A stretch of DNA of 36,324 bases from Deltaproteobacteria bacterium (GTDB lineage Bacteria > CG2-30-53-67). The stretch is taken from assembly GCA_013151235.1 (NCBI GenBank), contig JAADIO010000059.1:1-36324 (forward strand). The letters are read 5' to 3'. Shown here one piece after another: positions 21,508-36,324 of this stretch (the stretch's first letter is position 1; each line of letters begins with the position of its first letter). Made by a program: the position numbers and the translations under genes. The notes under the pieces are model-generated. The model searched no databases. It was not told where the DNA came from and saw only the letters and a program-made list of their open reading frames with translations.

Positions 21508-21867
21508 ATGCACGAATTATCCGTTGTACAGAGCCTGCTGGAGACCATCGAAAGTTATGCCGCAGAACAGAAAGCCACAACCGTGACGAAGGTCATCGTC
21601 CGGAACGGCCCCCTCTCGGGCGTCGTTCCCGATCTTCTCCGTACAACCTTCGACACCTTCAAGGAGAAGACCATCGCCGAAGATGCGGAACTGGTGATTG
21701 GAGAAAATCCCCTGCTCATCCAATGCCATGACTGCAAGCAGGAAGTACGGAGCATGATCCAGAAATTCGCCTGCCCCATTTGCGGTTCCCGGAACGTCGA
21801 TGCCCGGGGGGGAGACGACCTGATCCTCGAACGGCTGGAGATGGATGTTGCCGATGATCCGGATTGA
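21508..21867 (+). CDS. hypA: Nickel metallochaperone HypA
   Basis: N-terminal MHE, CHDC...CPIC Zn site. Confidence 0.95.
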   Translation: MHELSVVQSLLETIESYAAEQKATTVTKVIVRNGPLSGVVPDLLRTTFDTFKEKTIAEDAELVIGENPLLIQCHDCKQEVRSMIQKFACPICGSRNVDARGGDDLILERLEMDVADDPD

Positions 21868-24076
21868 ACTCCGCCTCCGGGGCGCCGTCCAGGGGGTCGG
21901 TTTCCGCCCTTTCATCTACCGGACCGCCCGGCGTCTCGGACTCTGCGGTTATGTGGTCAACGAACCTTCGGGGGTAACAATCGAGGCGGAGGGAACCCGG
22001 GAGAAGATCGACCGGTTTTTGAAGATCATCGAAAGCGATTCCCCACCCCTTGCGAAAATTCTCCACCGGACCACCGCCTTTATCCCCCCGGCAGGATACA
22101 ACGACTTTGAAATCCGTCGAAGCGAAGAGGGAGGCGACCGGAAGGCCGTCCTGATTCCCGATCTCTCCACCTGCAGGGTCTGTACGGAGGAACTCCTCGA
22201 TCCCGGGAACCGTCGATACCGCTATCCTTTTATCAACTGCACCGACTGCGGCCCCCGCTTCTCTATTATCGAAGGACTTCCCTACGACCGTTCCCGGACG
22301 ACGATGAAGAGATTCACCCTCTGCCCCGACTGCCGGAGAGAATATGAAGATCCCGGCAACCGCCGGTTTCATGCCGAACCGAACGCCTGCCCGGTCTGCG
22401 GCCCTCGGGTCCGGCTGATTGACCCTGCCGGGAAGGAGATCGCCGACGGAGGCAAGGCGATCGACCGGCTGCTCGCAGAGATCCGGCGGGGGAGGATCGC
22501 AGCGATTAAGGGAGTCGGCGGATTTCATCTCGTCTGTAACACCACATGCGAGGCATCGGTATTCCTCCTGCGAAAGCGGAAAGGACGGTCGAACAAACCC
22601 TTCGCCGTCATGTTCAAGGATCTCGACCAGGTCCGCCGCTATGCCGATCCGACGGAGGAAGAAGAGACCCTCCTCTCCTCCCCGGAGCGGCCCGTCGTCC
22701 TGATCCGCAAGAGAGAAGGTCAACTCACGGCCGTCTCACCGGGTCTTGCAACCGTCGGAGCCTTTCTTCCCTACTCCCCCCTCCATACCGTTCTCCTTTC
22801 CGCCCTTCCCTTCCCCATCGTCGCCACTTCGGGAAACTTCTCGGAAGAGCCGATCGTCAAGGGGAACGAAGAGGCAGAAAGACGTCTTTCCCCCCTGGCC
22901 GATTTTCTCCTTCTTCATAACCGGCCGATCCGCCGCCGCTGCGACGACTCCGTCACCAGAATCATCGGGAAGAAACCACGACTGTTGCGGCGGGCAAGGG
23001 GATTCACGGCAACACCGATGATCCTGCCCGCAAAGAGAAAAGAGAAGATTCTTGCCGTGGGCGGTCAGTTGAAGAACACCTTCGCCCTCGCCTTCGACGA
23101 CCAAGTGATCGTGAGCCCCCACATCGGAGACCTGGAGACACCCGAGGGGATGGACCACTTCGAGTCTGCACTTTCGGATCTCTGCAGGATCTACGACTTC
23201 ACGCCGGACCGGATCGTCCACGACCTTCATCCCGGCTACGCAACCACCCGCTGGGCAAGAGGGCGGGCCGACATCGAAACAACCCCGATCCAGCATCACT
23301 ACGCCCATATCCTCTCCTGCATGGCGGAACATGGTCTGACGGATACGGTCACGGGGATCGCATGGGACGGCACCGGTTATGGACCCGACGGGACGGTCTG
23401 GGGCGGAGAGGTCCTCCGCTGTACCCCCACGGAATATGAACGGCTCTTCCACTTCCGTCCCTTCCCCCTTTTGGGAGGGGACAAGGCCGTCTTCGAGCCC
23501 CGCCGCGTCGCGCTGGCCCTGCTGATGGAGATCTACGGGGAGCGGGCCTTCGCCATGGACCTTCCCCCCATCCGGGCCTTCCGGCAGGCGGAACTCCACT
23601 TCCTCGAAAAAGCGTGGGAGAAAAGGATCAACGCCCCCCTGACCTCCTCGGTGGGGCGGCTCTTCGACGGCGTAGCCTCTCTTCTCGGCATCGTTCAGAT
23701 CCTCAATTACGAAGCCGAAGGAGCGATGAAGATCGAGGATCGGGTCCTTCCCGGCATAGATGGCCATTACCGCTATAACTTTGAGGAAGGGATAATCGAC
23801 TGGCGGCCCCTGATCGAAGAGCTGATCCACGACCGGGAGCAGGAGAAGGTTCCCGCCCGTTTCGTGAATACCCTGGCCCGAATCATCATCGATTGCGCCC
23901 ACCGGGCCGGCCGGAAAAGAATTTGCCTCTCGGGCGGCGTATTTCAGAACCGGCCTCTCACCGAACGGGCGGAGAGACTGTTGCGGAAGGACGGCTTTTC
24001 GGTTTTCACACAGAGCCGTATCCCCTGCAACGACGGCGGGCTCTCCCTGGGCCAGGCCTACTGGAGAACGCCATAG
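21845..24076 (+). CDS. hypF: Carbamoyltransferase HypF
   Basis: GAVQGVGFRPF acylphosphatase domain, CxxC zinc fingers, RRFHA, KGVGGFHL, QHHYAH, DGTGYG, NDGGLSLGQ. Start may be 21854. Confidence 0.96.
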   Translation: MLPMIRIELRLRGAVQGVGFRPFIYRTARRLGLCGYVVNEPSGVTIEAEGTREKIDRFLKIIESDSPPLAKILHRTTAFIPPAGYNDFEIRRSEEGGDRKAVLIPDLSTCRVCTEELLDPGNRRYRYPFINCTDCGPRFSIIEGLPYDRSRTTMKRFTLCPDCRREYEDPGNRRFHAEPNACPVCGPRVRLIDPAGKEIADGGKAIDRLLAEIRRGRIAAIKGVGGFHLVCNTTCEASVFLLRKRKGRSNKPFAVMFKDLDQVRRYADPTEEEETLLSSPERPVVLIRKREGQLTAVSPGLATVGAFLPYSPLHTVLLSALPFPIVATSGNFSEEPIVKGNEEAERRLSPLADFLLLHNRPIRRRCDDSVTRIIGKKPRLLRRARGFTATPMILPAKRKEKILAVGGQLKNTFALAFDDQVIVSPHIGDLETPEGMDHFESALSDLCRIYDFTPDRIVHDLHPGYATTRWARGRADIETTPIQHHYAHILSCMAEHGLTDTVTGIAWDGTGYGPDGTVWGGEVLRCTPTEYERLFHFRPFPLLGGDKAVFEPRRVALALLMEIYGERAFAMDLPPIRAFRQAELHFLEKAWEKRINAPLTSSVGRLFDGVASLLGIVQILNYEAEGAMKIEDRVLPGIDGHYRYNFEEGIIDWRPLIEELIHDREQEKVPARFVNTLARIIIDCAHRAGRKRICLSGGVFQNRPLTERAERLLRKDGFSVFTQSRIPCNDGGLSLGQAYWRTP

Positions 24077-24203
24077 GGGCCAGGGCATCGGGAATTCAAG
24101 GGCGCAAGGAAAAAAATAAACCTTCCCAAATGGACTCATTATCGCTTATGATCCTGCCCGCAACGACATAAAGCGGAAACTTACAAAACAACGTACAGGG
24201 AGA

Positions 24204-24728
24204 ATGGTCATGACGGAGAAGAATCACCTCGGAGAAATTGTCGCCAAACGGATCGAACACCTGCGTGCACGCCCGAAGGTTGCCATTTATAAGCCGAAGA
24301 TCTCATCGAGACATGTCCGCAATCTCTACACCGAGTCGGAGGTACGCGGGCACATCGTCAAATCGGACTACCCGGAACCGGCCGGGGGGGAGAACCTCGC
24401 CCCGAATCCGATCGAACTCCTCCTGTCGGCCATGGCCTCCTGTATCGAGGCCGCTTTCTACGAATTCGCCGAATACGAAGGACTGACGATCCACTCCATC
24501 ACGGTGGACATCAAAGGGGAACTCGATCTGCGGGGACTCTTTATGGTGGATGAGACCGTCGATGCCGGATTCCGGGAGCTGGCCTACACCTTCCGGATCG
24601 AGACCCCCGACCCCGCCGAAAAGGTGAAAAACCTGGCGGAAAAAGTCGTCGACCATTGCCCCGTTGTCGATAGTCTGCGGAGGCCCATCAACATCCACGG
24701 TGAAATCGAGATCCGGAAGCCGGAATAA
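24204..24728 (+). CDS. OsmC/Ohr-family protein
   Basis: D.P...GG....PNP.ELLL.A.ASC and HCPV.DSL two-Cys signature. Confidence 0.9.
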   Translation: MVMTEKNHLGEIVAKRIEHLRARPKVAIYKPKISSRHVRNLYTESEVRGHIVKSDYPEPAGGENLAPNPIELLLSAMASCIEAAFYEFAEYEGLTIHSITVDIKGELDLRGLFMVDETVDAGFRELAYTFRIETPDPAEKVKNLAEKVVDHCPVVDSLRRPINIHGEIEIRKPE

Positions 24729-24920
24729 ACAACAAAATTCGCGTATTACAATATTTGATATTTGCAAGAATTTATTTGCAATCCGGATTTGACAATTCGT
24801 ACATTTGGTGCTAATTCTTTATTGCACCTGCATTTCCCATCAATCCAGGAGGTCCGGAAAAAGATTTTATGCCGTCATCATCGGGATGAAGAATTATCCG
24901 TTTGCCGAAGGGAGGCGTTC

Positions 24921-26021
24921 ATGGATGGGTCACACAGACATGAGGTTGGTTCCCCGGAAGAAACGATTTATGAGTCCTTGGTCCGAAAGGGGTATTCCCG
25001 AAGAGACTTTCTGAGGTTCTGCACCGCCGTCACCGCCGCCCTCGCCCTTCCCGCCCCTTTCGTCTCCAGGGTCGCCGAAGCACTTGAAACCAAGAAGAAA
25101 CCGATCCTCGTCTGGCTGGAATTTCAGGACTGCGCCGGAAACTCCGAGGCACTTCTCCGGGCGACGAAACCGACGGTCGGAGAACTCATCCTCGATATCC
25201 TCTCGATTGAATACCATGAAACAATCATGGCGGCGGCAGGACACCAGGCGGAAAAATCTCTGGCCGACGTCGTGGCGAACCATAAGGGGAACTACATCGC
25301 CGCCGTGGAAGGATCGATCCCGATGAAGGACGGCGGTGTCTACTGCTGTATCGGGGGCCGGTCGGCAAAGGATATCGTAACCGAGGTCTGCGGCAATGCC
25401 ATGGCAACCATTGCCATGGGGACCTGCGCCTGCTTCGGCGGTCTCCCCGCCGCGGCACCGAACCCGACCTCCGCCGTCGGCGTCTCCGCAGCCCTCCCCA
25501 ACATTCCTGTCGTAAATCTCTCGGGCTGCCCCGTCAACGTGGAAAACATCACCGCAACGATTGTTTATTTCCTGACCTTTGGTACGCTCCCCCCCCTCGA
25601 CAAGTTCGGCCGTCCCCTCTTCGCCTACGGAAAACGAATTCACGACAACTGCGAACGCCGGGCGCATTTCGACGCCGGACAGTATGTCCGGGAATGGGGC
25701 GACGAGGGACACCGGAAGGGGTGGTGTCTCTATGAAATGGGGTGCAAGGGGCCGGAGACCTTCCATAATTGTCCTCGCATCAAATACAATGACGGGACGA
25801 GTTGGCCCGTCGGATCGGGACACGGCTGTATCGGCTGTTCCGAACCGGCCTTCTGGGACGGGATGACGCCCTTCTACGAACGTCTCCCGCAACCACCCGG
25901 CTTCGGTGTAGAAGCGACGGCCGACAAGGTCGGGCTCGGCATCACCGCCGTAACGGGCGCAGCCGTGGCGGCCCATGGGATTGGGAGGATGATTACAGGC
26001 AAGAACACCCGGAAAGACTGA
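24921..26021 (+). CDS. Group 1 [NiFe]-hydrogenase small subunit (Tat-exported, C-terminal membrane anchor)
   Basis: RBS ggagg before ATG24921; SRRDFLRFC Tat motif, WLEFQDCAGNSE, GCP, HDNCERR, WCLYEMGCKGP, GHGCIGC, C-terminal hydrophobic helix. Confidence 0.95.
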   Translation: MDGSHRHEVGSPEETIYESLVRKGYSRRDFLRFCTAVTAALALPAPFVSRVAEALETKKKPILVWLEFQDCAGNSEALLRATKPTVGELILDILSIEYHETIMAAAGHQAEKSLADVVANHKGNYIAAVEGSIPMKDGGVYCCIGGRSAKDIVTEVCGNAMATIAMGTCACFGGLPAAAPNPTSAVGVSAALPNIPVVNLSGCPVNVENITATIVYFLTFGTLPPLDKFGRPLFAYGKRIHDNCERRAHFDAGQYVREWGDEGHRKGWCLYEMGCKGPETFHNCPRIKYNDGTSWPVGSGHGCIGCSEPAFWDGMTPFYERLPQPPGFGVEATADKVGLGITAVTGAAVAAHGIGRMITGKNTRKD

Positions 26022-26052
26022 CGGCTGCTCTGCGTAAAGGGGATGCTTTTCA

Positions 26053-26176
26053 ACGGTAAAGCAAAAAGTTCCGGCTGCAAGGCGCGAAGGTTTTGAAGAG
26101 CGAGGCGTACTTTGTGGTACGTTGAAGCGAACTCAAAACCTGATAAACGCAGCAGACGGACTTTTTACGAAGCCGC
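26053..26176. repeat. MITE-like intergenic element
   Basis: Imperfect terminal inverted repeats (acggtaaagcaaaaagttc / ggactttttacgaagccgc) and internal cgtac...gtacg palindrome; the right end matches 99-110. Confidence 0.6.
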
Positions 26177-26195
26177 AGAGAAAAGGAGAGATTCC

Positions 26196-27905
26196 ATGGT
26201 AAAGATCGCAATCGATCCGGTCACCAGAATCGAAGGACACCTGAGAATTGAAGCAAAGGTGGAAGGCGGAAAGGTCGTCGATGCCTGGTCGTCGAGTACC
26301 ATGTTCCGGGGGATCGAGCTGATTCTCAAGGGCCGCGACCCCAGGGATGCCTGGGCCTTTACCCAACGGGCCTGCGGCGTCTGCACCACCGTCCACGCTT
26401 TTGCTTCGATCCGGGCGGTGGAAAACGCCCTCGATATCACGATCCCCGATAATGCCCGGATCATCCGGAACATCATCTCGGCCGTCCAGTTCGTGCAGGA
26501 CCATGTGATTCATTTTTACCATCTCCATGCCCTCGACTGGGTTGATATCATCAGCGCCCTTTCGGCCGACCCGGCAAAGACCGCGGCCCTGGCCCAGTCA
26601 ATCTCGGACTGGCCGAATTCCTCCGTCACCTACTTCCGGGAGACCAAGGCAAAGATCCAGACCTTCGTCGATTCAGGACAGCTCGGCCCCTTTTCCAATG
26701 CCTACTGGGGACATCCGGCTTACAAACTTCCGCCCGAGGCCAACCTCATGGCCGTCTCCCACTATCTGGAGGCCCTCGACTGGCAGCGGGACATCATCCG
26801 GATTCACGCCCTCCTCGGCGCCAAGAATCCCCACCTGCAGACCTTTCTCGTGGGAGGGATGGCGGTCCCCGTCGACCCGAACAGCCAGAACGCACTGAAC
26901 GCAGGGAGTCTCGCCTTCATGAAGGAACTGGCAACGAAAATCCGCCGGTTCGTGGAACAGGTCTACATCCCCGACCTGCTCGCCGTAGCCTCCTTTTACA
27001 AGGAGTGGGCCGCGTACGGCGGCGGCGTGGGCAATTATCTCGTCTATGGAGAATTCCCGAACAACAACGTAAGCAACACCGACAACCTATGGCTTCCCCG
27101 GGGGATCATCATGAACCGCGACCTCTCCACGGTCCTCCCCGTGGACCAGGAGAAAATCCGTGAATACGTCACCCACTCCTGGTATGAATACCCGGAAGGG
27201 AACGCAACGGGGAGACACCCCTATGAAGGGGAAACAAACGACCGGTACACGGGGCCGAAACCGCCTTACGACTTTCTGAACACGGATGCCGAATACAGCT
27301 GGCTCAAGGCTCCCCGCTACGAGGAGACCTCCATGGAGGTCGGTCCCCTGGCCCGGATGCTCGTGGCTTACGCCTCGGGTCATGCAGAGGTCAAGGCAGC
27401 GGTCAATCTCGTCCTGGGCAAACTCGGCGTCGGGCCGGAGGCGCTCTTCTCCACCCTCGGCCGGACGGCGGCACGCGGCGTGGAGACTCTCGTCATCGCC
27501 GACAGGCTCCCCGGCTGGATCGATGAACTTGCCGCCAACATGAAGAAGGGGGACCTGCGGGTTCATGCCGACGAAAAATGGGACCCTGCAACCTGGCCGA
27601 AAACGGCACAGGGATACGGCTGGTATGAGGCCCCCCGGGGGGCATTGGGACACTGGATCAAAATCAGGAAGACCAAGATCGACAATTACCAGATGGTCGT
27701 GCCGAGTACCTGGAACGGCTCTCCCATGGACGCCGGGGGCAAAAAAGGTCCCTGGGAGGCCGCGATCATCGGGACCCCCGTAGCGGATCCGGAGAAACCG
27801 CTGGAGATCCTCCGGACCGTCCACTCCTTCGACCCCTGCATGGCCTGCGCCGTCCATGTCATCGATCCCGAAGGGAAGGAAGTGATCCGAGTCAAGGTGA
27901 TCTAA
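26196..27905 (+). CDS. Group 1 [NiFe]-hydrogenase large subunit
   Basis: RBS aaggag before ATG26196; IDPVTRIEGH, L1 QRACGVCTTVH, L2 SFDPCMACAVH, plus a cleavable C-terminal extension. Confidence 0.96.
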   Translation: MVKIAIDPVTRIEGHLRIEAKVEGGKVVDAWSSSTMFRGIELILKGRDPRDAWAFTQRACGVCTTVHAFASIRAVENALDITIPDNARIIRNIISAVQFVQDHVIHFYHLHALDWVDIISALSADPAKTAALAQSISDWPNSSVTYFRETKAKIQTFVDSGQLGPFSNAYWGHPAYKLPPEANLMAVSHYLEALDWQRDIIRIHALLGAKNPHLQTFLVGGMAVPVDPNSQNALNAGSLAFMKELATKIRRFVEQVYIPDLLAVASFYKEWAAYGGGVGNYLVYGEFPNNNVSNTDNLWLPRGIIMNRDLSTVLPVDQEKIREYVTHSWYEYPEGNATGRHPYEGETNDRYTGPKPPYDFLNTDAEYSWLKAPRYEETSMEVGPLARMLVAYASGHAEVKAAVNLVLGKLGVGPEALFSTLGRTAARGVETLVIADRLPGWIDELAANMKKGDLRVHADEKWDPATWPKTAQGYGWYEAPRGALGHWIKIRKTKIDNYQMVVPSTWNGSPMDAGGKKGPWEAAIIGTPVADPEKPLEILRTVHSFDPCMACAVHVIDPEGKEVIRVKVI

Positions 27906-27921
27906 GAGGAAGGAGACCGTC

Positions 27922-28578
27922 ATGCCCCGAGAACGCATCCGCACCTACGCATGGGAGATCCCGGTCCGCCTCACCCACTGGGTGAATTTCCTCTGTATCA
28001 TCATACTGGTCGTCACCGGCTTTTACATCGGAAGGCCCTATGTCCGGACCGGCAGTCCGTATCTCATGGGGTGGATGCGATTCATTCACTTCACAGCCGC
28101 TTATCTCTTCGTGATGAGCCTGTTGGTCCGAATCTACTGGGCCTTTGCCGGAAACAAATATGCAAGCTGGCGGGTCTGGCTCCTCCTCACAAAGCGGCAA
28201 TGGAAGGATTTTTGGGGAGCATTGAAATTCTATCTCTTTCTCAGCAAGCATCCTCCCTCCGCCGTAGGACATACGGCCATCGCCGGGTTCACCTACTTTT
28301 TCGTCTTCCTCCTTTTCGGGTGGCAGATCCTCTCCGGCTTTGCCCTCTATTCTCTTTCTCATACGGGAGTCCTCTGGCTCTACCTGGGCGGCTGGCTGAC
28401 GGGTGTGATGCATCTGCAAACGATCCGTCTCTACCATCACCTGGCGACATACGCCATTATTTCCTTTGCCGCAGCCCATGTCTACATTGCCTGGTACCTG
28501 ACACTGAAAGAGCGGAACGGATTAATGGGATCGATCTTTGACGGGTATAAGTTTGTGACGGGGAAAGAATGGGAGTAG
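27922..28578 (+). CDS. Ni/Fe-hydrogenase b-type cytochrome subunit
   Basis: VRLTHW, RFIHF, LYHHL, AHVY heme-ligand histidines, four hydrophobic segments, SIFDGYK. Confidence 0.93.
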   Translation: MPRERIRTYAWEIPVRLTHWVNFLCIIILVVTGFYIGRPYVRTGSPYLMGWMRFIHFTAAYLFVMSLLVRIYWAFAGNKYASWRVWLLLTKRQWKDFWGALKFYLFLSKHPPSAVGHTAIAGFTYFFVFLLFGWQILSGFALYSLSHTGVLWLYLGGWLTGVMHLQTIRLYHHLATYAIISFAAAHVYIAWYLTLKERNGLMGSIFDGYKFVTGKEWE

Positions 28579-28633
28579 TTATCGTAAGGAACCTGAGCGG
28601 TAACTCCAAGAAAAAAACTATGCGAAATTTCCT

Positions 28634-29176
28634 ATGAACGATACACACCAGGGAAAGATCGCCGTGGTCGGTATCGGGAACCTGCTTCTCACCGATGACG
28701 GGATCGGGATTCATGCCCTGCGGGAATTAGAAGCACGCTATCGATTCCCCGGTCATGTCGATCTCCTCGACGGGGGGACGATGGGGCTCGACCTCCTCCC
28801 CTTTTTAGAGGGAAAGGACCGGATCCTCTTTTTGGATGCCGTCAGTTTCGGAAAAGCTCCGGGGACGATCGGTGAACTGAACAACGGAGAGATCCCCGGC
28901 TTCTTCGCAACCAAGCTTTCCGTCCATCAGATTGCTCTGCCTGATCTGTTGGGAGCCGGCAGGCTCCTCGGTACGCTCCCGGAACGGATGTGCCTGATCG
29001 GGATCGAACCGGAAAGCATCGAAAGCGGATACGGTCTCAGCCCTACGCTGGGGGAACAACTGGAAGGTTATCTGACCGCCGTTCTCGAAAGACTGGCCGA
29101 ATGGGGCGTTCATCCATCCGCCGTTGAATATGAGAATGACGAGCGGTGCCGGTCCATGAAAGCACCGACGACTTGA
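28634..29176 (+). CDS. Hydrogenase maturation protease (HyaD/HybD family)
   Basis: GIGNLLLTDDGIG, DGGT, LDAV, SVHQ. Confidence 0.94.
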   Translation: MNDTHQGKIAVVGIGNLLLTDDGIGIHALRELEARYRFPGHVDLLDGGTMGLDLLPFLEGKDRILFLDAVSFGKAPGTIGELNNGEIPGFFATKLSVHQIALPDLLGAGRLLGTLPERMCLIGIEPESIESGYGLSPTLGEQLEGYLTAVLERLAEWGVHPSAVEYENDERCRSMKAPTT

Positions 29177-29204
29177 CCCTTGACTCCGAAACCCTGGTTT
29201 TATT

Positions 29205-29483
29205 ATGTGCCTTGCCATCCCCTCCCGCATCACGGAGATTGAGAACCTCACCGCCACCATCGATGTTCTGGGCGCCGCCCGCAAGATCAGTCTTATCCTC
29301 CTGCCCGAACCGGCCGCCGTAGATGACTATGTTCTTGTCCACGCAGGATTCGCCCTTCAGAAGATCTGCAGGGAGGATGCCCTCGACTCGATCCGGATCC
29401 TCCATGAGATCGCACGGCAGATGGAGGAGGAAGATCCGTTGAAGGTGCAGGAAAGACCTGAATCCCCCGGCAAAACTCCATGA
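29205..29483 (+). CDS. hypC: Hydrogenase chaperone HypC
   Basis: MCLAIP N-terminus, DYVLVHAGFA. Confidence 0.95.
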   Translation: MCLAIPSRITEIENLTATIDVLGAARKISLILLPEPAAVDDYVLVHAGFALQKICREDALDSIRILHEIARQMEEEDPLKVQERPESPGKTP

Positions 29484-29523
29484 TCCTCCCGCAACACTTT
29501 CCGATCACAAACAGGGTTGAAAA

Positions 29524-30651
29524 TCAGACCTGCCGGAACCGGTAATAGGCGTTGCAGGCGCCTTCGGAAGAAACCATGCAGGCCCCCGCCGGATGATCGG
29601 GGGTACACCCCTTTCCAAAGAGGGTGCAATGAAGCGGTTCCGCCTTGCCCCGAAGGACCTCCCCGCAGAGACAGGCAGGATGTTCACAAGGTTCTCCGAC
29701 AGGGAGAACATCTTCATAGACGATTTCCGCATCAAACCGGGCGTATTCCTCTTTCAGACGAAGGCCGCTTTCCGGAATCGACCCGATCCCCCGCCAGGAA
29801 AAGCTCTTTCGGGGAACAAAATATCTCTCCATCAATTCCTGCGCCTTGGGATTCCCTTCAAAATCAACGGCCCGGTCGTACTGGATTTCCACCTCCCGCC
29901 TGCCTTCCGCAGCCTGGCGAACAATCATGAGCACACTTTCGAGAAGATCCACCGGTTCAAAGCCGGAAACCACGATGGGAACTTCGTATTGTGCTGCGAT
30001 GGAACGATAGATCCCGGCCCCGGTAATCACGCTGACATGACCGGGGGCAATGAAGGCCTGCACTTTCACATGATCATCGGCCATGATCGCATGGAGGGCC
30101 GGAGAGATCAACACATGGTTGACGTGAAAGAAGATGTTCTCCCGCTCCTCCTTTAGAACCCGATCCACAAGCGCCGCAGTTAAAGGCGCCGTCGTTTCGA
30201 AACCGATCGCGAAATAGACAATTCTTTTCTCCGGATTTGCTCCGGCGATTTTCAGAACCTCCAGGGGGGAATAGACGGTCCGCACATCCCGTCCCCCCGC
30301 CCGTTCCAGAATCAGGGAACTCTCCGAACCGGGCACCCGCATCATATCGCCCAGGGTCACCAGGATCACGCCCTCCTGCCGGGCCAATGCAATGGCATGG
30401 TCGATCCTCCCCTTCGGCATGATGCAGACGGGACAGCCCGGCCCGTGCAGAAAAGAAATTCCATCCGGCAGCAACTGGTGCAAACCGTAGTGCATGATCA
30501 CATGGGTATGCCCGCCGCAGACCTCCATGATTCGAAGGGACGGACCCGCCTCTTCACAAATCCGGGCGGCCAGGGCGGTGATCGCTTCCCCGCTTCGGAG
30601 ACTCTGAAAGTCACCGGTCAATCGCCGTTCCATTGGATCCTCCACGGTCAA
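29524..30651 (-). CDS. hypD: Hydrogenase maturation protein HypD
   Basis: MEVCGGHT, GPGCPVC, GFETT, PGHVS, C.CG.VL.G...P..C..F...C.P..P.GACMVSSEGAC. Exact start uncertain. Confidence 0.95.
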   Translation of the reverse strand: MTVEDPMERRLTGDFQSLRSGEAITALAARICEEAGPSLRIMEVCGGHTHVIMHYGLHQLLPDGISFLHGPGCPVCIMPKGRIDHAIALARQEGVILVTLGDMMRVPGSESSLILERAGGRDVRTVYSPLEVLKIAGANPEKRIVYFAIGFETTAPLTAALVDRVLKEERENIFFHVNHVLISPALHAIMADDHVKVQAFIAPGHVSVITGAGIYRSIAAQYEVPIVVSGFEPVDLLESVLMIVRQAAEGRREVEIQYDRAVDFEGNPKAQELMERYFVPRKSFSWRGIGSIPESGLRLKEEYARFDAEIVYEDVLPVGEPCEHPACLCGEVLRGKAEPLHCTLFGKGCTPDHPAGACMVSSEGACNAYYRFRQV

Positions 30652-30846: not shown

Positions 30847-33408
30847 TTAGCCGCACTTGGAGTAACCACAGGAAAGACATTTGAGACACCCTTCCGCCCG
30901 CTCCAGGGTCCCCACAGCCCCGCAGTCGGGACAGGTTGTCTGTTTGACGACCACTTGGTCCGTCTCAACATGCAACTTATGTTTGCCGTTTTTTCCGTTC
31001 GTCTTCATGTAGCGCCGCTCCAGGATCCGGGCGATGGCATCGGGGATGGAACGGACCAGCCCGTCCTTCTGAAAGATCGGATAATCCCCGCCGATCCCCT
31101 TGAGCTGACGGACGATCTTCTCTACAGGAACTCCATAACGAAGAGAGAGTGAAACCAGACGTCCGATCGCCTCGGTCTTCGCCATCGTCGACTGTCCCGA
31201 TTTACCGATCGTTGCAAAAACCTCGACCGGTTTGCCTTCCACCTCGTTTACGGTGATGTAAAGGGTGCCGTGACCCAGTTTCATCTTGGCGGTAAATCCC
31301 TCGAGAATGGCAGGACGTGACAAAACCCGTTCCGCCCGCGCTGGTATGGACCTTTGCGATTCAGGGACGGATAATGGCTCAGAACGCTCACTATCTTCCT
31401 TCCCCACGTTCAGGACCTGTCCCGCCTTGCTCCCGTCCCGGTAGATGGTAACCCCCTTGCAGCCGGTCTCATAGGCCCGGATGTAGACCTCCTCCACATC
31501 TGAGATGGTGGCGTCATGGGGGAAATTGACGGTTTTGGAGACGGCATTATCCGTATATTTCTGGAAGGCCGCCTGCATCCGGATATGCCACTCCGGAGTC
31601 ACATCGTGCGCCGTAACGAAGACCTCCCGGACCTCGCGGGGGACCTCCTCCATCCCCTGGAGCGTACCCTTTTCGGCAATTCGGGCCATCAATTCTTCGG
31701 AATAGAACCCCTTCTCGATGGCAATCTTCCGGAAGGACTCGTTCACCTCAATCAGTTTATCGTTGTCCATCACATTTCGGTAATAAGAGAGAGCAAAGAT
31801 CGGCTCGATCCCGGAAGAACAGTTTGCAATGATCGAAAGAGTCCCCGTGGGGGCGATGGTCGTCATCGTGGCGTTCCGCACCTTCGGCATCCCCTTGTTG
31901 TCAAAAATACTTCCCTTGAAGTTGGGGAAGGCCCCCCGGACGGCAGCCAGTTCCTTCGAGGCTGTTCGGGCCTCCTTCCGGATAAACGACATGACCTTCT
32001 CGGCAAGGTCGATCGCCCGCTCCGAGTTATAGGGAATATTCAGGGCGATAAGGAGATCGGCCCATCCCATAATGCCGAGACCGATCTTCCGGTTCCCCTG
32101 CACCCGGTCCCGGATCTTTTTCAGGGGGAACTTCGACATATCAATCACATTATCCAGAAAATTAACCGAGGTATGCACAATACGGGAAAGTTGCTCATAG
32201 TCGACTTCCGGAAATCCGTCCCGGGATTTGACCACCCGTGCCAGATTGATGGACCCGAGGTTGCAAGCCTCGTAAGGAAGGAGGGGCTGCTCGCCGCAAG
32301 GGTTGGTCGATTCAATCTCCCCCAAAAGAGGCGTCGGGTTGTCCCGGTTCAGGCGATCCAAGAAGACAATCCCGGGATCACCGTTCTTCCAGGCCAGTTG
32401 AACGATCTCGTCGAAGACCTCCTTCGCATCAAGCTGCCCCGCCAATCCCTTTGTATAGGGATCGACCAGATCATAGGGTTTCCCGGCCTTGGCCGCTTCC
32501 ATAAAAGCCTCGGTCAGCCCGACGGAAAGGTTAAAATTATTGAGGCTTCCGTCATTCTCTTTGGCATGGATAAACTCAAGGATATCGGGATGATCCACCC
32601 GGAGTATCCCCATGTTCGCTCCCCTGCGGGTCCCCCCCTGCTTCACCTGCTCCGTCGCCGTATTGAAAATCCGCATGAAAGAGATCGGACCGGAAGCAAC
32701 CCCGCCGGTGGAACCGACCTGTGAGTTCTTGGGCCGGAGACGGGAGAAGGAGAAACCGGTACCGCCGCCCGACTTGTGGATCAGGGCCGCATGTTTCAGG
32801 GAATCGAAAATCCCCTCCATGGAATCATCCACGGGAAGAACAAAGCAGGCGGAAAGCTGCTGCAACTCCCGGCCGGCATTCATCAGGGTCGGAGAGTTGG
32901 GCAAAAACTCGAGATTGGTCATCAACCGGTAAAAAATCCGGGCTTTCTCCGGCACGTTGGCCTTTTTATCGTAGATCCGCTCCGCCCCGGCAATGTTCTT
33001 CGCCACCCGGAGAAACATATCCTTCGGGGCCTCGAGCGGTCGGTTCTTTTCATCTTTTTTCAGATAGCGCCGCTCCAGAACACGAACAGCATTTGGAGAA
33101 AGATCAAGGGAAGGTAAAGATTCCGAGGGAGTCACGGGGAAAGCCACCGCAGGCATGCGCTTGATCCCGTAATACATCAGCTTCGCTTCGATCAGTTTCT
33201 GCATGACCGGCTGCGTCAGCGGCTTATTCTTGTGGGAGGCAAACTCCTTTTCAATATCCCGGCTGATCATCGAAGCCACCTCTTCACTGCCGTGATTGCC
33301 CCGGACCAGGGCATCGACAAAGGAATCCCGGTCCCATACGGAAGCAAGCTCCTCCCGGTTTCGATCCAGGACTTCACCAACCGACTCTACACCTTTTTTG
33401 CCTGACAT
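30847..33408 (-). CDS. nrdJ: Adenosylcobalamin-dependent (class II) ribonucleotide reductase with TSCPD domain and C-terminal Zn ribbon
   Basis: PNSPTLMNAG, LSACFV, GGGTG, TNPCGEQPL..YEACNLGS, APTGT, NAVSKTVN, KGVTIYRDGS, SIPDAI, CPDCG..EGC..C..CGYSKC. Confidence 0.95.
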   Translation of the reverse strand: MSGKKGVESVGEVLDRNREELASVWDRDSFVDALVRGNHGSEEVASMISRDIEKEFASHKNKPLTQPVMQKLIEAKLMYYGIKRMPAVAFPVTPSESLPSLDLSPNAVRVLERRYLKKDEKNRPLEAPKDMFLRVAKNIAGAERIYDKKANVPEKARIFYRLMTNLEFLPNSPTLMNAGRELQQLSACFVLPVDDSMEGIFDSLKHAALIHKSGGGTGFSFSRLRPKNSQVGSTGGVASGPISFMRIFNTATEQVKQGGTRRGANMGILRVDHPDILEFIHAKENDGSLNNFNLSVGLTEAFMEAAKAGKPYDLVDPYTKGLAGQLDAKEVFDEIVQLAWKNGDPGIVFLDRLNRDNPTPLLGEIESTNPCGEQPLLPYEACNLGSINLARVVKSRDGFPEVDYEQLSRIVHTSVNFLDNVIDMSKFPLKKIRDRVQGNRKIGLGIMGWADLLIALNIPYNSERAIDLAEKVMSFIRKEARTASKELAAVRGAFPNFKGSIFDNKGMPKVRNATMTTIAPTGTLSIIANCSSGIEPIFALSYYRNVMDNDKLIEVNESFRKIAIEKGFYSEELMARIAEKGTLQGMEEVPREVREVFVTAHDVTPEWHIRMQAAFQKYTDNAVSKTVNFPHDATISDVEEVYIRAYETGCKGVTIYRDGSKAGQVLNVGKEDSERSEPLSVPESQRSIPARAERVLSRPAILEGFTAKMKLGHGTLYITVNEVEGKPVEVFATIGKSGQSTMAKTEAIGRLVSLSLRYGVPVEKIVRQLKGIGGDYPIFQKDGLVRSIPDAIARILERRYMKTNGKNGKHKLHVETDQVVVKQTTCPDCGAVGTLERAEGCLKCLSCGYSKCG

Positions 33409-33720: not shown

Positions 33721-33799
33721 CAAAGAGGTCAAGTCTGCTTTTGGCTCTTTTGGTTAGCATCTTTTTCAATAAGAGCCAAAAGCAGACTTGACCCCTTTG
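33721..33799. repeat. Long inverted repeat (29-bp arms, one mismatch, 21-nt spacer)
   Basis: caaagaggtcaagtctgcttttggctctt ... aagagccaaaagcagacttgacccctttg. Confidence 0.85.
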
Positions 33800-33813
33800 C
33801 TGTGTGTATAAAA

Positions 33814-33880
33814 TGGCGGGAGAGGGCGGGAATCGAACCCACCAGGCGGGGTGTTAAGCCGCCCCACCGGATTTGAAGTC
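33814..33880 (-). tRNA. selC: 3' fragment of tRNA-Sec (anticodon UCA); not a complete gene, probable att-site copy
   Basis: Minus strand GA-CTTCAAA-TCCGGT, long variable arm, GTGGG-TTCGATT-CCCGC (5-bp T stem), CCTCTCCC (8-nt acceptor strand), G, CCA: the 8/5 tRNA-Sec layout. Sequence 5' of the anticodon loop is AT-rich and cannot form the D arm or acceptor 5' strand. Confidence 0.88.
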
Positions 33881-34055
33881 TATTTTGATATGATTTGTAT
33901 GGATTAGCCAAGGTCAATAAAAGCATAAAAAACACTTGATTTGTCAAAGAGTTACATGCTATGTTGATTCATGGAAATCAACCTTGATTTTTGGCGTTTC
34001 GTGAAACGTACAAAACCAGAACAAGACCAAAAAATGAGTATCCCCGATATTCCGC

Positions 34056-34082
34056 TTGACGGATGAATTAACATAATGTTAA
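34056..34082 (+). promoter_or_regulatory. TA operon promoter with palindromic operator
   Basis: TTGACG at 34056-34061; perfect palindrome TTAACAT-A-ATGTTAA (34068-34082) over the spacer/-10 region. Confidence 0.55.
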
Positions 34083-34104
34083 CTTCAGGATACAGGACAG
34101 CGGG

Positions 34105-34416
34105 TTGAAAAAGGCACCGGATCAATTCAGCAGAAGCGAGGCTCTCAAACATATCCGGGAAAACTGGGTCAAGGGGTCGATTCTCTCCAGCAGGCATTTC
34201 AGGGAACGGCTGATCGAAAGAAATATCACCATGCAGGATGTGGCTTATGCCGTGAAGCATGGGAGAATCGAAGACCCGCCGGACCTCCACCCGAAAACAA
34301 ATGAATGGTGCTACAGGGTGAAGGGAAGAACAGTCGACAAGATACCGGTCACGGTCGTCATCGAACTGGGAGATCCGGATATCAACCGGCTGGTAACGGT
34401 CTATCCGGGAGAATAG
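34105..34416 (+). CDS. DUF4258-family putative toxin
   Basis: S.HFRERL.ER.IT..DV...V..G.I ... Y.V.G ... LVTVY pattern; directly upstream of an antitoxin-like gene; TTG start. Confidence 0.75.
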   Translation: MKKAPDQFSRSEALKHIRENWVKGSILSSRHFRERLIERNITMQDVAYAVKHGRIEDPPDLHPKTNEWCYRVKGRTVDKIPVTVVIELGDPDINRLVTVYPGE

Positions 34417-34418
34417 CG

Positions 34419-34916
34419 ATGAAGTGCATCAGTTGCGGCGCAAGGATGAAGAAAAAGATCGGCAACTATCGTTATGACGAATCCGGCCTGAAGGATGTGA
34501 CCCTGGCCGGGGTGCCGATATATACATGCCGTTGCGGGGAGATCTCTCCCCTGATCCGGAATACCGATGAACTGCACCGGGTCATTGCGTACATGCTCAC
34601 AAAGAAGACGGCTCCCCTAACCGGCCCCGAGTTCCGTTTTCTCCGGAAAGAGATGGGAATGAACGCCAAAGAGATTGCAAAACTCCTCGGGGTGTCACCG
34701 ATAACGGTTTCACGGTGGGAGACCGGCAACAAGAATATCGGAAACTCCAACGACCGGCTGATCCGCCTGATCTATATCCGGCACCTGGAAGGCCTCTGTT
34801 CAAAATTCATCGATACGGATATGAAAACGGTTCTGTACAACATCACCCCTGAACACTCCGGGAAAGTCACCATCCCCGTCGACCGGCTCCCCGATCTGCT
34901 TCCCTGTACGGTCTGA
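34419..34916 (+). CDS. MqsA/YgiT-type antitoxin (Zn finger + XRE HTH)
   Basis: MKCISCG...CRCGE Zn ribbon; LTGPEFRFLRKEMGMNAKEIAKLLGVSPITVSRWETG HTH; start 2 nt after the toxin stop. Confidence 0.88.
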   Translation: MKCISCGARMKKKIGNYRYDESGLKDVTLAGVPIYTCRCGEISPLIRNTDELHRVIAYMLTKKTAPLTGPEFRFLRKEMGMNAKEIAKLLGVSPITVSRWETGNKNIGNSNDRLIRLIYIRHLEGLCSKFIDTDMKTVLYNITPEHSGKVTIPVDRLPDLLPCTV

Positions 34917-35141
34917 TAACCACGATTGCCCTGAAATCCCGGTCGGAACCTGCTGAAAAATCCGGTGTCTTCATTTTTCTGCGCGACTTTTCCCTTTCTC
35001 AAGTTACTGATATAACAGAATGTCTTCAAAGAGTGGCGAGTTGCACCATCTGTCGGCACCTGAGCATACTCTCATAGCAACAAGGGGCACCAAGAAAATC
35101 GCCAATAACACCATACGGTTAGCCTATGCCACAAACAAACC

Positions 35142-35170
35142 TTGACAAACGGTTATTTTTTGAGTATTTT
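35142..35170 (+). promoter_or_regulatory. Putative sigma70 promoter of the PEP-CTERM gene
   Basis: TTGACA-N17-TATTTT. Confidence 0.5.
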
Positions 35171-35203
35171 GCTCTTGCGTATACAACCAAGGAGGGAAAG
35201 GCG

Positions 35204-35974
35204 ATGAAAAATTTTTCTGGGAAGATGGTTTCGCGGTTGGCGGCGGGGGTTTTCGCTGTCTTGGTTATTTTCTGCTTTTTGGCTGGGAGCGCGGAGGCGG
35301 TGTCTACCGTTACCGCTCGTATTGAGCCGTATGGAGAACAGATCGGGCTTCGGGATGCCGGATATTACAACGGCATCTACATAATTGACATTGACGGCAA
35401 GGACTATCAGGCGATGCTGAATTTGCCGGATTTACCGCTTATTGGTGGTTTTGGAATGGGTAACTCTACGGATTTCCTGCCGTTCCAGGCGGAGCTGTAT
35501 GATTTCGCCGATATTCAGGCGACTGGCGGGCCGTATCCGGACCGGATCACGGCTTCGGAGTATAACCAGAGCGCTGATGTATTTGTTACCGCTCTTTTGG
35601 GATACAACCCGCCGGATCCGCTCTGGGCTGCGGGGCTCGGGGATTGCCTTTGGGAATCCATATATGGCACAATTGGTGCGTTCCAAGGAGACCCGACATT
35701 ATCTTACTCGAGTCGGGTATATGATACATCAACAGGTATGACGATGTATGACGCCTACAAGACGCTGTGGCCCCTCAATCCGAATATGGATTGGAGCGGA
35801 GATATGTGGGTTTTGTCTGAAGTGCAAGGGGTAGAGCAAAATTTTTTTGTCTTCGCCACGCCTGTGGGGCTTGCGGGTGGGGCTCCGGTGCCGGAACCGG
35901 CGTCGCTTTTCCTCATCGGGACGGGTATCGTCGGGATTCTGGCGATACGGTCGTCAAAGAAAAGGTGGCAATAA
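35204..35974 (+). CDS. PEP-CTERM sorting-domain surface protein
   Basis: RBS aaggaggg, signal peptide (AEA-V), C-terminal PVPEPASLFLIGTGIVGILAIRSSKKRWQ. Confidence 0.9.
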   Translation: MKNFSGKMVSRLAAGVFAVLVIFCFLAGSAEAVSTVTARIEPYGEQIGLRDAGYYNGIYIIDIDGKDYQAMLNLPDLPLIGGFGMGNSTDFLPFQAELYDFADIQATGGPYPDRITASEYNQSADVFVTALLGYNPPDPLWAAGLGDCLWESIYGTIGAFQGDPTLSYSSRVYDTSTGMTMYDAYKTLWPLNPNMDWSGDMWVLSEVQGVEQNFFVFATPVGLAGGAPVPEPASLFLIGTGIVGILAIRSSKKRWQ

Positions 35975-35978
35975 CCAC

Positions 35979-36010
35979 AGCGGGACGCGAATGCGCCCCG
36001 CTTTTTTTTT
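35979..36010 (+). terminator. Intrinsic terminator
   Basis: agcgggacgc-gaat-gcgccccgct followed by a long T-run. Confidence 0.85.
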
Positions 36011-36058
36011 GCTGAAAATGTTTCTTTTGCCCACTTGTTTCATCCTCTCAGGCGATAC

Positions 36059-36324
36059 TTAATTAAAATCGTATTTGCACAATACCCCACCAACATTGCC
36101 AGCATATTTCCCTCCCGGACAGGATGCGTCTTTTTCAAGCGACCAAAACATTGAGAATGGAGCCGTACATACTGGATTGGTATTTTGCGTGCAGTAATAT
36201 ATCCCTTCGTTAAAAAAAACACCTGGACCTGTTGATTTTGGTATCAAAGGAAGAGATGGCATAAATTTCTTTATCTCCGTGTTTACAGCCGGATTCTGCG
36301 GATACAAATCAAAGAAACCGCAAT
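36059..36324 (-). CDS. C-terminal part of an unknown Cys-rich protein (5' end outside the window)
   Basis: Frame open to the window edge (CGFFDLYPQN...CKYDFN-stop), five Cys, lower GC than the core genes. Confidence 0.5.
   Translation of the reverse strand, partial: CGFFDLYPQNPAVNTEIKKFMPSLPLIPKSTGPGVFFNEGIYYCTQNTNPVCTAPFSMFWSLEKDASCPGGKYAGNVGGVLCKYDFN

Follow-up and report, generated by a model that had tools for sequence, protein, structure and literature searches.

The window analysed here, a stretch of 36,324 nucleotides that makes up the whole of contig C4 of the genome under study (G000; 2.62 Mb in 73 contigs), carries near its end a displaced piece of the tRNA-Sec gene selC. The best explanation, to which we give a probability of roughly 0.7, is that this marks the remnant of an integrase-type element in selC, a dead island that holds a recent, non-functional transfer of DNA from Patescibacteria (CPR) into a non-CPR genome. 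The attachment scar itself is real and ordinary. The initial annotation read the region as an island in selC; the scar, the intact selC and the empty site bear it out, the analysis does not support the predicted integrase or a large intact element, and the CPR cargo was not visible from the window alone. Comparisons were made with the related genomes G001 to G008, of which G001 is of the same genus, in sets of nine family genomes and 13 other genomes of the phylum. Features of the window are collected in the table.

Features at the right-hand end of the window and their positions.
Feature	Position	Strand	Remarks
nrdJ, B12-dependent ribonucleotide reductase; native downstream neighbour of selC	30847..33408	-	NF006417 over cut-off; directly after selC in G001 and G007
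REP/REPIN-like hairpin between tRNA fragment and nrdJ promoter, host side	33721..33799	.	z -10.3; arm has 30 genome matches
70-nt direct repeat: tRNA-Sec 3' fragment (33814-33880) plus 3 nt	33811..33880	-	attR-type scar, anticodon-loop crossover class; 100% identity to C19:29755-29824
Arm-like, AT-rich element DNA with five TGATTY/RAATCA motifs and a tandem 11-mer pair near 34008-34029	33881..34040	.	32% GC; layout as in both tRNA-Leu island arms; putative integrase arm sites
15-nt palindrome upstream of toxin gene	34068..34082	.	seen in the sequence; candidate operator
DUF4258 (RelE/ParE-superfamily) toxin-like gene	34105..34416	+	PF14076, E 2.9e-12
MqsA-like zinc-finger/HTH antitoxin	34419..34916	+	TIGR03830, 70.2 bits (cut-off 61.8); MqsA structures, E 0.0016
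PEP-CTERM surface protein, host-lineage type	35126..35974	+	PF07589; likely start 35204; upstream motif common to other G000 loci
Terminator hairpin and T9 run of PEP-CTERM gene	35979..36010	+	hairpin z -2.8; putative right junction of CPR piece
Second CPR pilin gene, apparent first 16 codons, cut off	35996..36043	-	13/14 nt common with first pilin start; putative
Patescibacteria-type type IV pilin, C-terminal half (87 aa)	36059..36324	-	N-terminal half ends contig C19 (31486-31753)

The initial annotation had described a tRNA(UCA) piece of 8/5 geometry that runs from the anticodon loop onward, without the D arm or 5' acceptor strand, and had taken it for a displaced 3' piece of selC, with a second copy and an intact, correctly oriented gene to be expected at the far end of an island. 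The intact gene, which contains the second copy, is present on contig C19. Positions 33814-33880 (minus strand) are nucleotides 32-98 of a 98-nt tRNA-Sec(UCA) at C19:29724-29821, identical at 67 of 67 positions, and with three extra bases the exact block comes to 70 nt (E 8e-31), extending 0 nt further on the 5' side. The fragment begins 2 nt before the anticodon loop, and neither ARAGORN nor an Rfam scan reported it on the window alone. The C19 gene is the sole intact copy in G000, scores 73.3 bits against RF01852 (cut-off 47) and folds with an acceptor stem of 8 bp and a T stem of 5 bp. AT-rich DNA and then accessory genes follow the fragment, also as first described, with the 160 nt beyond 33880 at 32% GC against about 55% for the genome. 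The wider region is no more than mildly atypical, at 49% GC and with tetranucleotides in the top 4-8% of 3045 windows. Among the nine family genomes G000 alone has two copies of the repeat; seven have one and in one none is assembled. The genome therefore holds an intact tRNA gene and an end fragment of the same gene, the pair by which Islander recognises tRNA islands, and the 3' fragment would lie downstream in the same orientation once the pilin gene described below is used to link C19 (+) with C4 (-), as also follows from gene order in the relatives. A dispersed repeat of about 200 nt, with many genome copies, lies just upstream of selC (C19:29495-29705).

Because relatives show an empty selC-nrdJ junction, the fragment is confirmed as the right-hand (attR-type) scar of a mobile element in selC. 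The empty junction, a check proposed at the outset, was seen in G001 and G007, where selC lies 209 nt and 69 nt, respectively, from a conserved nrdJ promoter block; in G000 the fragment lies 159 nt from this block, and the space is filled by the dispersed REP-like hairpin. A match of this hairpin to mir-186 (Rfam E 0.42) was discarded as chance. On the other side, a NUDIX gene stands 5' of selC on C19 and in 7/7 relatives in which selC was found. The space between selC and nrdJ measures 2.2 kb in G008 and 3.9 kb in G003, and contains PEP-CTERM genes but no fragment; the two genes are unlinked in G005 and on separate contigs in G004 and G006. Judged from these gene orders, the selC-nrdJ spot is a variable region in the family, with an attachment signature of the Islander kind only in G000. 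No intact sister element at selC was found in 13 relatives or four metagenome loci. The att core had 0 matches among viral contigs, and its four metagenome loci each carried one intact selC and no fragment.

Several further features of this neighbourhood were observed. In the family, selC stands between two tandem paralogues of class II ribonucleotide reductase (C19:26634-28394 and window 30847-33408). In G000 nrdJ is followed by a NiFe-hydrogenase and maturation cluster (window 21845-30651), and the genes found behind it in G001, G002 and G005 sit, in G000, on contig C18 near 36500, which indicates a local rearrangement. Homologues of the gene at C27:24628-25674, which from its N-terminal motif may be Y1-transposase-like, occur near nrdJ in G004.

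The AT-rich DNA next to the fragment has the appearance of an element arm. Five TGATTY/RAATCA motifs were counted against a shuffle mean of 0.32, and 0 of 5000 shuffles reached five, for a motif that was chosen after looking. G000 also has a tRNA-Leu(GAG) island, with its intact gene, arm and integrase end at C41:63-489 and a 55-nt anticodon-loop 3' fragment at C69:479-533. There, both sides share the tandem 11-mer, and some 160 nt separate the intact gene from the end of the integrase. Unlike this island, C19 has no arm motif, arm repeat or integrase after the intact selC, and no copy of the 22-nt arm repeat lies near selC; the core repeat is on both sides and the arm-like repeats on the right only. 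In other relatives, selC is immediately followed by the AAATCA motif of the tRNA-Leu island arm (G006, L037, G006:C81:1-104; G008, L033:8136-8180; G005, L031:10744-10780), in G006 with the tandem 11-mer as well. These motifs are likely to be scars left by other selC elements that have no fragment on the right.

An integrase beside selC had been predicted; neither it nor a large, intact mobile element was recovered. The search for a tyrosine recombinase within the interval gave 0 of the six PF00589 matches of the genome, all six being on other contigs, and nothing of the large serine recombinase type turned up in the genome. With five of the genome's own integrase loci as queries, tblastx returned a single 40-aa match over the antitoxin gene (E 0.005), taken as chance. 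All open reading frames of the interval are assigned to functions other than integration or transfer, as in a cis-mobilizable element (CIME), and the longest unassigned stretch is 254 nt.

Behind the intact selC come 44 nt with 80% likeness to the trailer of the empty site in G001. They are not a common repeat, as the G001 trailer matches C19 only in G000. A single clean insertion would put this native-like trailer after the fragment, so that one further event must be supposed: the trailer may at first have been part of the att repeat and later have given way to the hairpin on the right side, or DNA of an empty-site relative may have replaced the left end. Beyond the trailer lies a 27-codon stub that might be the start of a HEPN gene; neither Pfam nor an own-genome search supported this assignment.

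The two contigs appear to meet within one gene. C19 ends in an open 89-codon pilin N-terminus, and the window ends in an open 87-codon reading frame without a Pfam match. The 120 best longer homologues of the N-terminal half were collected and then compared with the C-terminal half, whose best matches were P0004, P0003, P0001, P0020 and P0002; four of these five are the top four homologues of the N-terminal half. Against the C-terminal parts of the homologues this half gave E 4e-22, the next of 1018 contig-end peptides reaching 6e-4. In an independent search of 1.84 billion proteins P0004 was again its first match (E 1e-14; four matches in total). A word-indexed search with the same query gave no match where an exhaustive search did, and the ESM Atlas gave weak leads, with recognition below threshold. 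The halves are complementary, with no overlap, and in four homologues 13-18 residues lie between them, corresponding to about 36-51 bp of unassembled DNA. A search for direct overlap of sequence between the ends of C4 and C19 found none. We infer that C19 and C4 join through one split pilin gene, and that the interval is therefore about 4.4 kb long and without an integrase, the repeats enclosing 4373 assembled bases and the pilin gap. On its gene content the element would be a decayed, CIME-like islet of this size, by all appearances immobile. A split gene can in this way join contigs of a metagenome-assembled genome (MAG) and size an island.

Some 250 nt beyond selC, the sequence of C19 changes to that of a groEL truncated behind codon 277, together with an intact groES and the pilin. 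By its tetranucleotides this groEL-groES-pilin stretch is among the most atypical 0.5% of 3045 windows, and with the apparent start of the second pilin the CPR piece, including its half groEL, comes to about 2 kb. The GroEL piece is 58% identical to the intact host copy (on contig C9), 70-75% to Paceibacteria genomes and up to 91% to database proteins, and its taxon-named matches are from Patescibacteria in 11 of 14 cases, the other three being unassigned. In a quick tree of 82 rows its clade has an SH-aLRT of 99, and the 13 further rows of this clade bear 12 Patescibacteria labels; the GroEL of G000, also by quick tree, groups with deltaproteobacteria-like lineages. Taxon-named pilin homologues are from Patescibacteria in 10 of 11 cases. 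The genes of the piece group, then, with Patescibacteria and not with the host copies, the GroEL piece falling with Paceibacteria. The 13 other genomes of the phylum match this stretch of C19 only through their own groE genes (63-88%, in short pieces) and the G001 trailer. Within the fetched flanks of 17 groEL loci, 16 of them CPR-labelled or CPR-grouping, a search for a pilin motif had no match, which counts against donor synteny.

The groEL piece has lost five codons between repeated AMG units, a deletion absent from 120/120 close and 80/80 wider homologues, and 0 of its 133 near-invariant sites are changed. This combination fits a recent arrival followed by one slippage deletion. At the right-hand end, none of 2000 shuffles reached the 13 nt that the second pilin frame shares with the start of the first, and in 35 of 120 homologues the pilin motif comes after AG. 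The last 15 nt of the terminator (35996-36010) read K-K-K-A-G on the opposite strand, just where the second-pilin frame ends, which suggests a cut within this gene at a microhomology, up to 15 nt long, on the host terminator. In keeping with DNA uptake, comEC and dprA are present in G000, although both also match in 10-11 of 14 control genomes.

The remaining cargo is of other kinds. The adjacent toxin-family and antitoxin-family genes, encoding the DUF4258 and MqsA-like proteins, are probably a type II toxin-antitoxin pair; a promoter scan called no promoter at the palindrome upstream. With the window query, no antitoxin relatives were found in the 13 other genomes of the phylum, nor any in viral contigs, and no toxin relatives turned up in plasmids or among solved structures. 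The DUF4258 family is listed among BECR-fold toxins, with its activity given as uncharacterised (PMC11980606). The PEP-CTERM gene is not an ortholog of those near nrdJ in relatives, as only the anchor motif matches. Its predicted model (35204-35974) shows a weak likeness to thioester-domain proteins, with TM about 0.5.

Taken together, the data are consistent with the following course of events. A tyrosine-integrase element, to which the crossover subsite and the arm point, would have inserted at the anticodon loop of selC, leaving the intact gene on what is now C19 and the 3' fragment beside nrdJ. The element would then have lost its integrase and, apparently, its left arm, so that the remaining islet would read selC, native-like trailer, short gene stub, CPR piece, PEP-CTERM gene, toxin-antitoxin pair, right arm and fragment. 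The CPR piece would most likely have entered by illegitimate recombination of DNA that was taken up, aided at the right junction by a short stretch of common sequence, and would now be decaying. The toxin-antitoxin pair may protect the remnant from deletion.

An alternative that we consider unlikely accepts the scar and treats the CPR segment as a double assembly or amplification chimera with co-occurring Patescibacteria, the true island lying in unassembled DNA and perhaps being larger, with an integrase. Polymerase template switching yields short shared sequence at junctions and deletions between short repeats, so both the junction microhomology and the groEL deletion could arise in this way. 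Both CPR stretches are contig ends, and the gap of about 45 bp was left unscaffolded in an assembly that holds 12 small N-gaps. The pilin 23-mer had 0 matches in metagenome contigs, and no sequence outside the assembly backs the CPR junctions or the contig join. Chimeric contigs are, moreover, common in MAGs; a preprint gives interspecies chimeric contigs in 20.5-69.4% of near-complete benchmark MAGs (10.64898/2026.10.15.759294). A chimera would, however, demand two independent wrong joins, leading from what independent evidence shows to be the two ends of one island into a single foreign gene, consistent in order and strand and about 45 bp apart, and a deletion seen in none of 120 homologues would be unlikely in a living CPR genome. 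As 70 of the 146 contig ends in the assembly are non-repeat dead ends, the contig break itself is ordinary, and limited checks, covering 10 atypical regions and a CPR-locus protein search, found no other CPR-like stretch in G000. With these points weighed, we are fairly confident that the CPR piece is a real insertion. Contig C64 (12.8 kb) of the same assembly has ends that overlap by 91 nt, and is either circular or bounded by one repeat.

We see very little chance that selC holds an intact, integrase-bearing element of ordinary size, in line with the initial annotation, and that the pilin halves belong to two distant genes: CPR pilins do occur as paralogues, the halves could be two related genes and the join is by homology only, but the halves are complementary with just the residues missing that four homologues place between them, and the integrase matches lie elsewhere. 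Equally improbable is that C19 is an undisturbed locus with its native trailer, the fragment being a duplicate or else an att site of other incoming DNA in a variable selC-nrdJ region, as the trailer 3' of the intact gene and the fragment-free PEP-CTERM inserts of G008 and G003 might suggest; against this, the copy starts exactly at the anticodon-loop subsite, its island side carries arm-like repeats as in the tRNA-Leu island, and its distance to the nrdJ promoter is native.

On the preferred reading of a remnant with CPR cargo, it is this cargo that makes the islet unlike routine attachment scars. The cargo matters because few Patescibacteria have a known host. A CPR-to-non-CPR fragment with mapped ends, and a donor at about 91% GroEL identity, offers a concrete pair for testing. 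It is possible, if doubtful, that the 2-kb piece is a recent footprint of physical contact, its DNA coming from an attached Paceibacteria (Parcubacteria) episymbiont, which would make this small uncultured phylum a candidate bacterial host of that CPR lineage. Free-DNA uptake explains the piece equally well, and a host is therefore suggested, not proven. Were the contact reading true, cut CPR housekeeping genes in dead tRNA islands could be mined in many genomes as directional host markers. CPR genes at MAG contig ends are, in addition, not always contamination. According to a groundwater study, evidence for lateral transfer is not strong even where CPR-host pairs have been confirmed (PMC8672522). 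As background, Patescibacteria occur together with Nitrospirota in one aquifer.

Among known systems, the islet resembles the tRNA islands of Islander in having an intact tRNA gene and a downstream 3' fragment, in the same orientation, from the anticodon loop; the anticodon-centred (A) subsite is used by 2083 of 3919 islands described there (PMC4383910). It differs in its size of only about 4.4 kb and in having no integrase, for which reason it would fail the Islander integrase filter. Like a CIME, it has lost integration and transfer genes and kept the att core repeat on both sides and passenger genes; unlike one, it has apparently lost the left arm, has no tandem helper and includes housekeeping DNA of another phylum (PMC5704250). 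No helper element was found in the family genomes or the metagenome att-core loci, and since no copy of the 22-nt arm repeat lies near selC, the islet is probably not a true CIME with two functional att sites. Enterobacterial islands share the selC target, with inserts of 3.4 to 57 kb, whereas the present host is unrelated and belongs to a small uncultured phylum, and the islet has no virulence cargo (PMC6174562). The toxin-antitoxin pair is like MqsR-MqsA modules in placing a BECR-family toxin gene beside a CxxCG zinc-finger/HTH antitoxin, but the toxin comes first here and the antitoxin first in the published family table (PMC11980606). In the literature searched, no report of a CPR fragment in a tRNA island came up. 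Exchange involving Patescibacteria is described for DNA common to CPR and non-CPR genomes, in fragments of 0.5-5.7 kb that hint at host links, with the cases in these sources mainly into CPR or undirected (PMC12455944, PMC10031880, PMC8672522). The piece in the selC islet, by comparison, would have passed out of CPR into a non-CPR genome; it lies inside a tRNA island, and each of its two mapped ends cuts through a gene.
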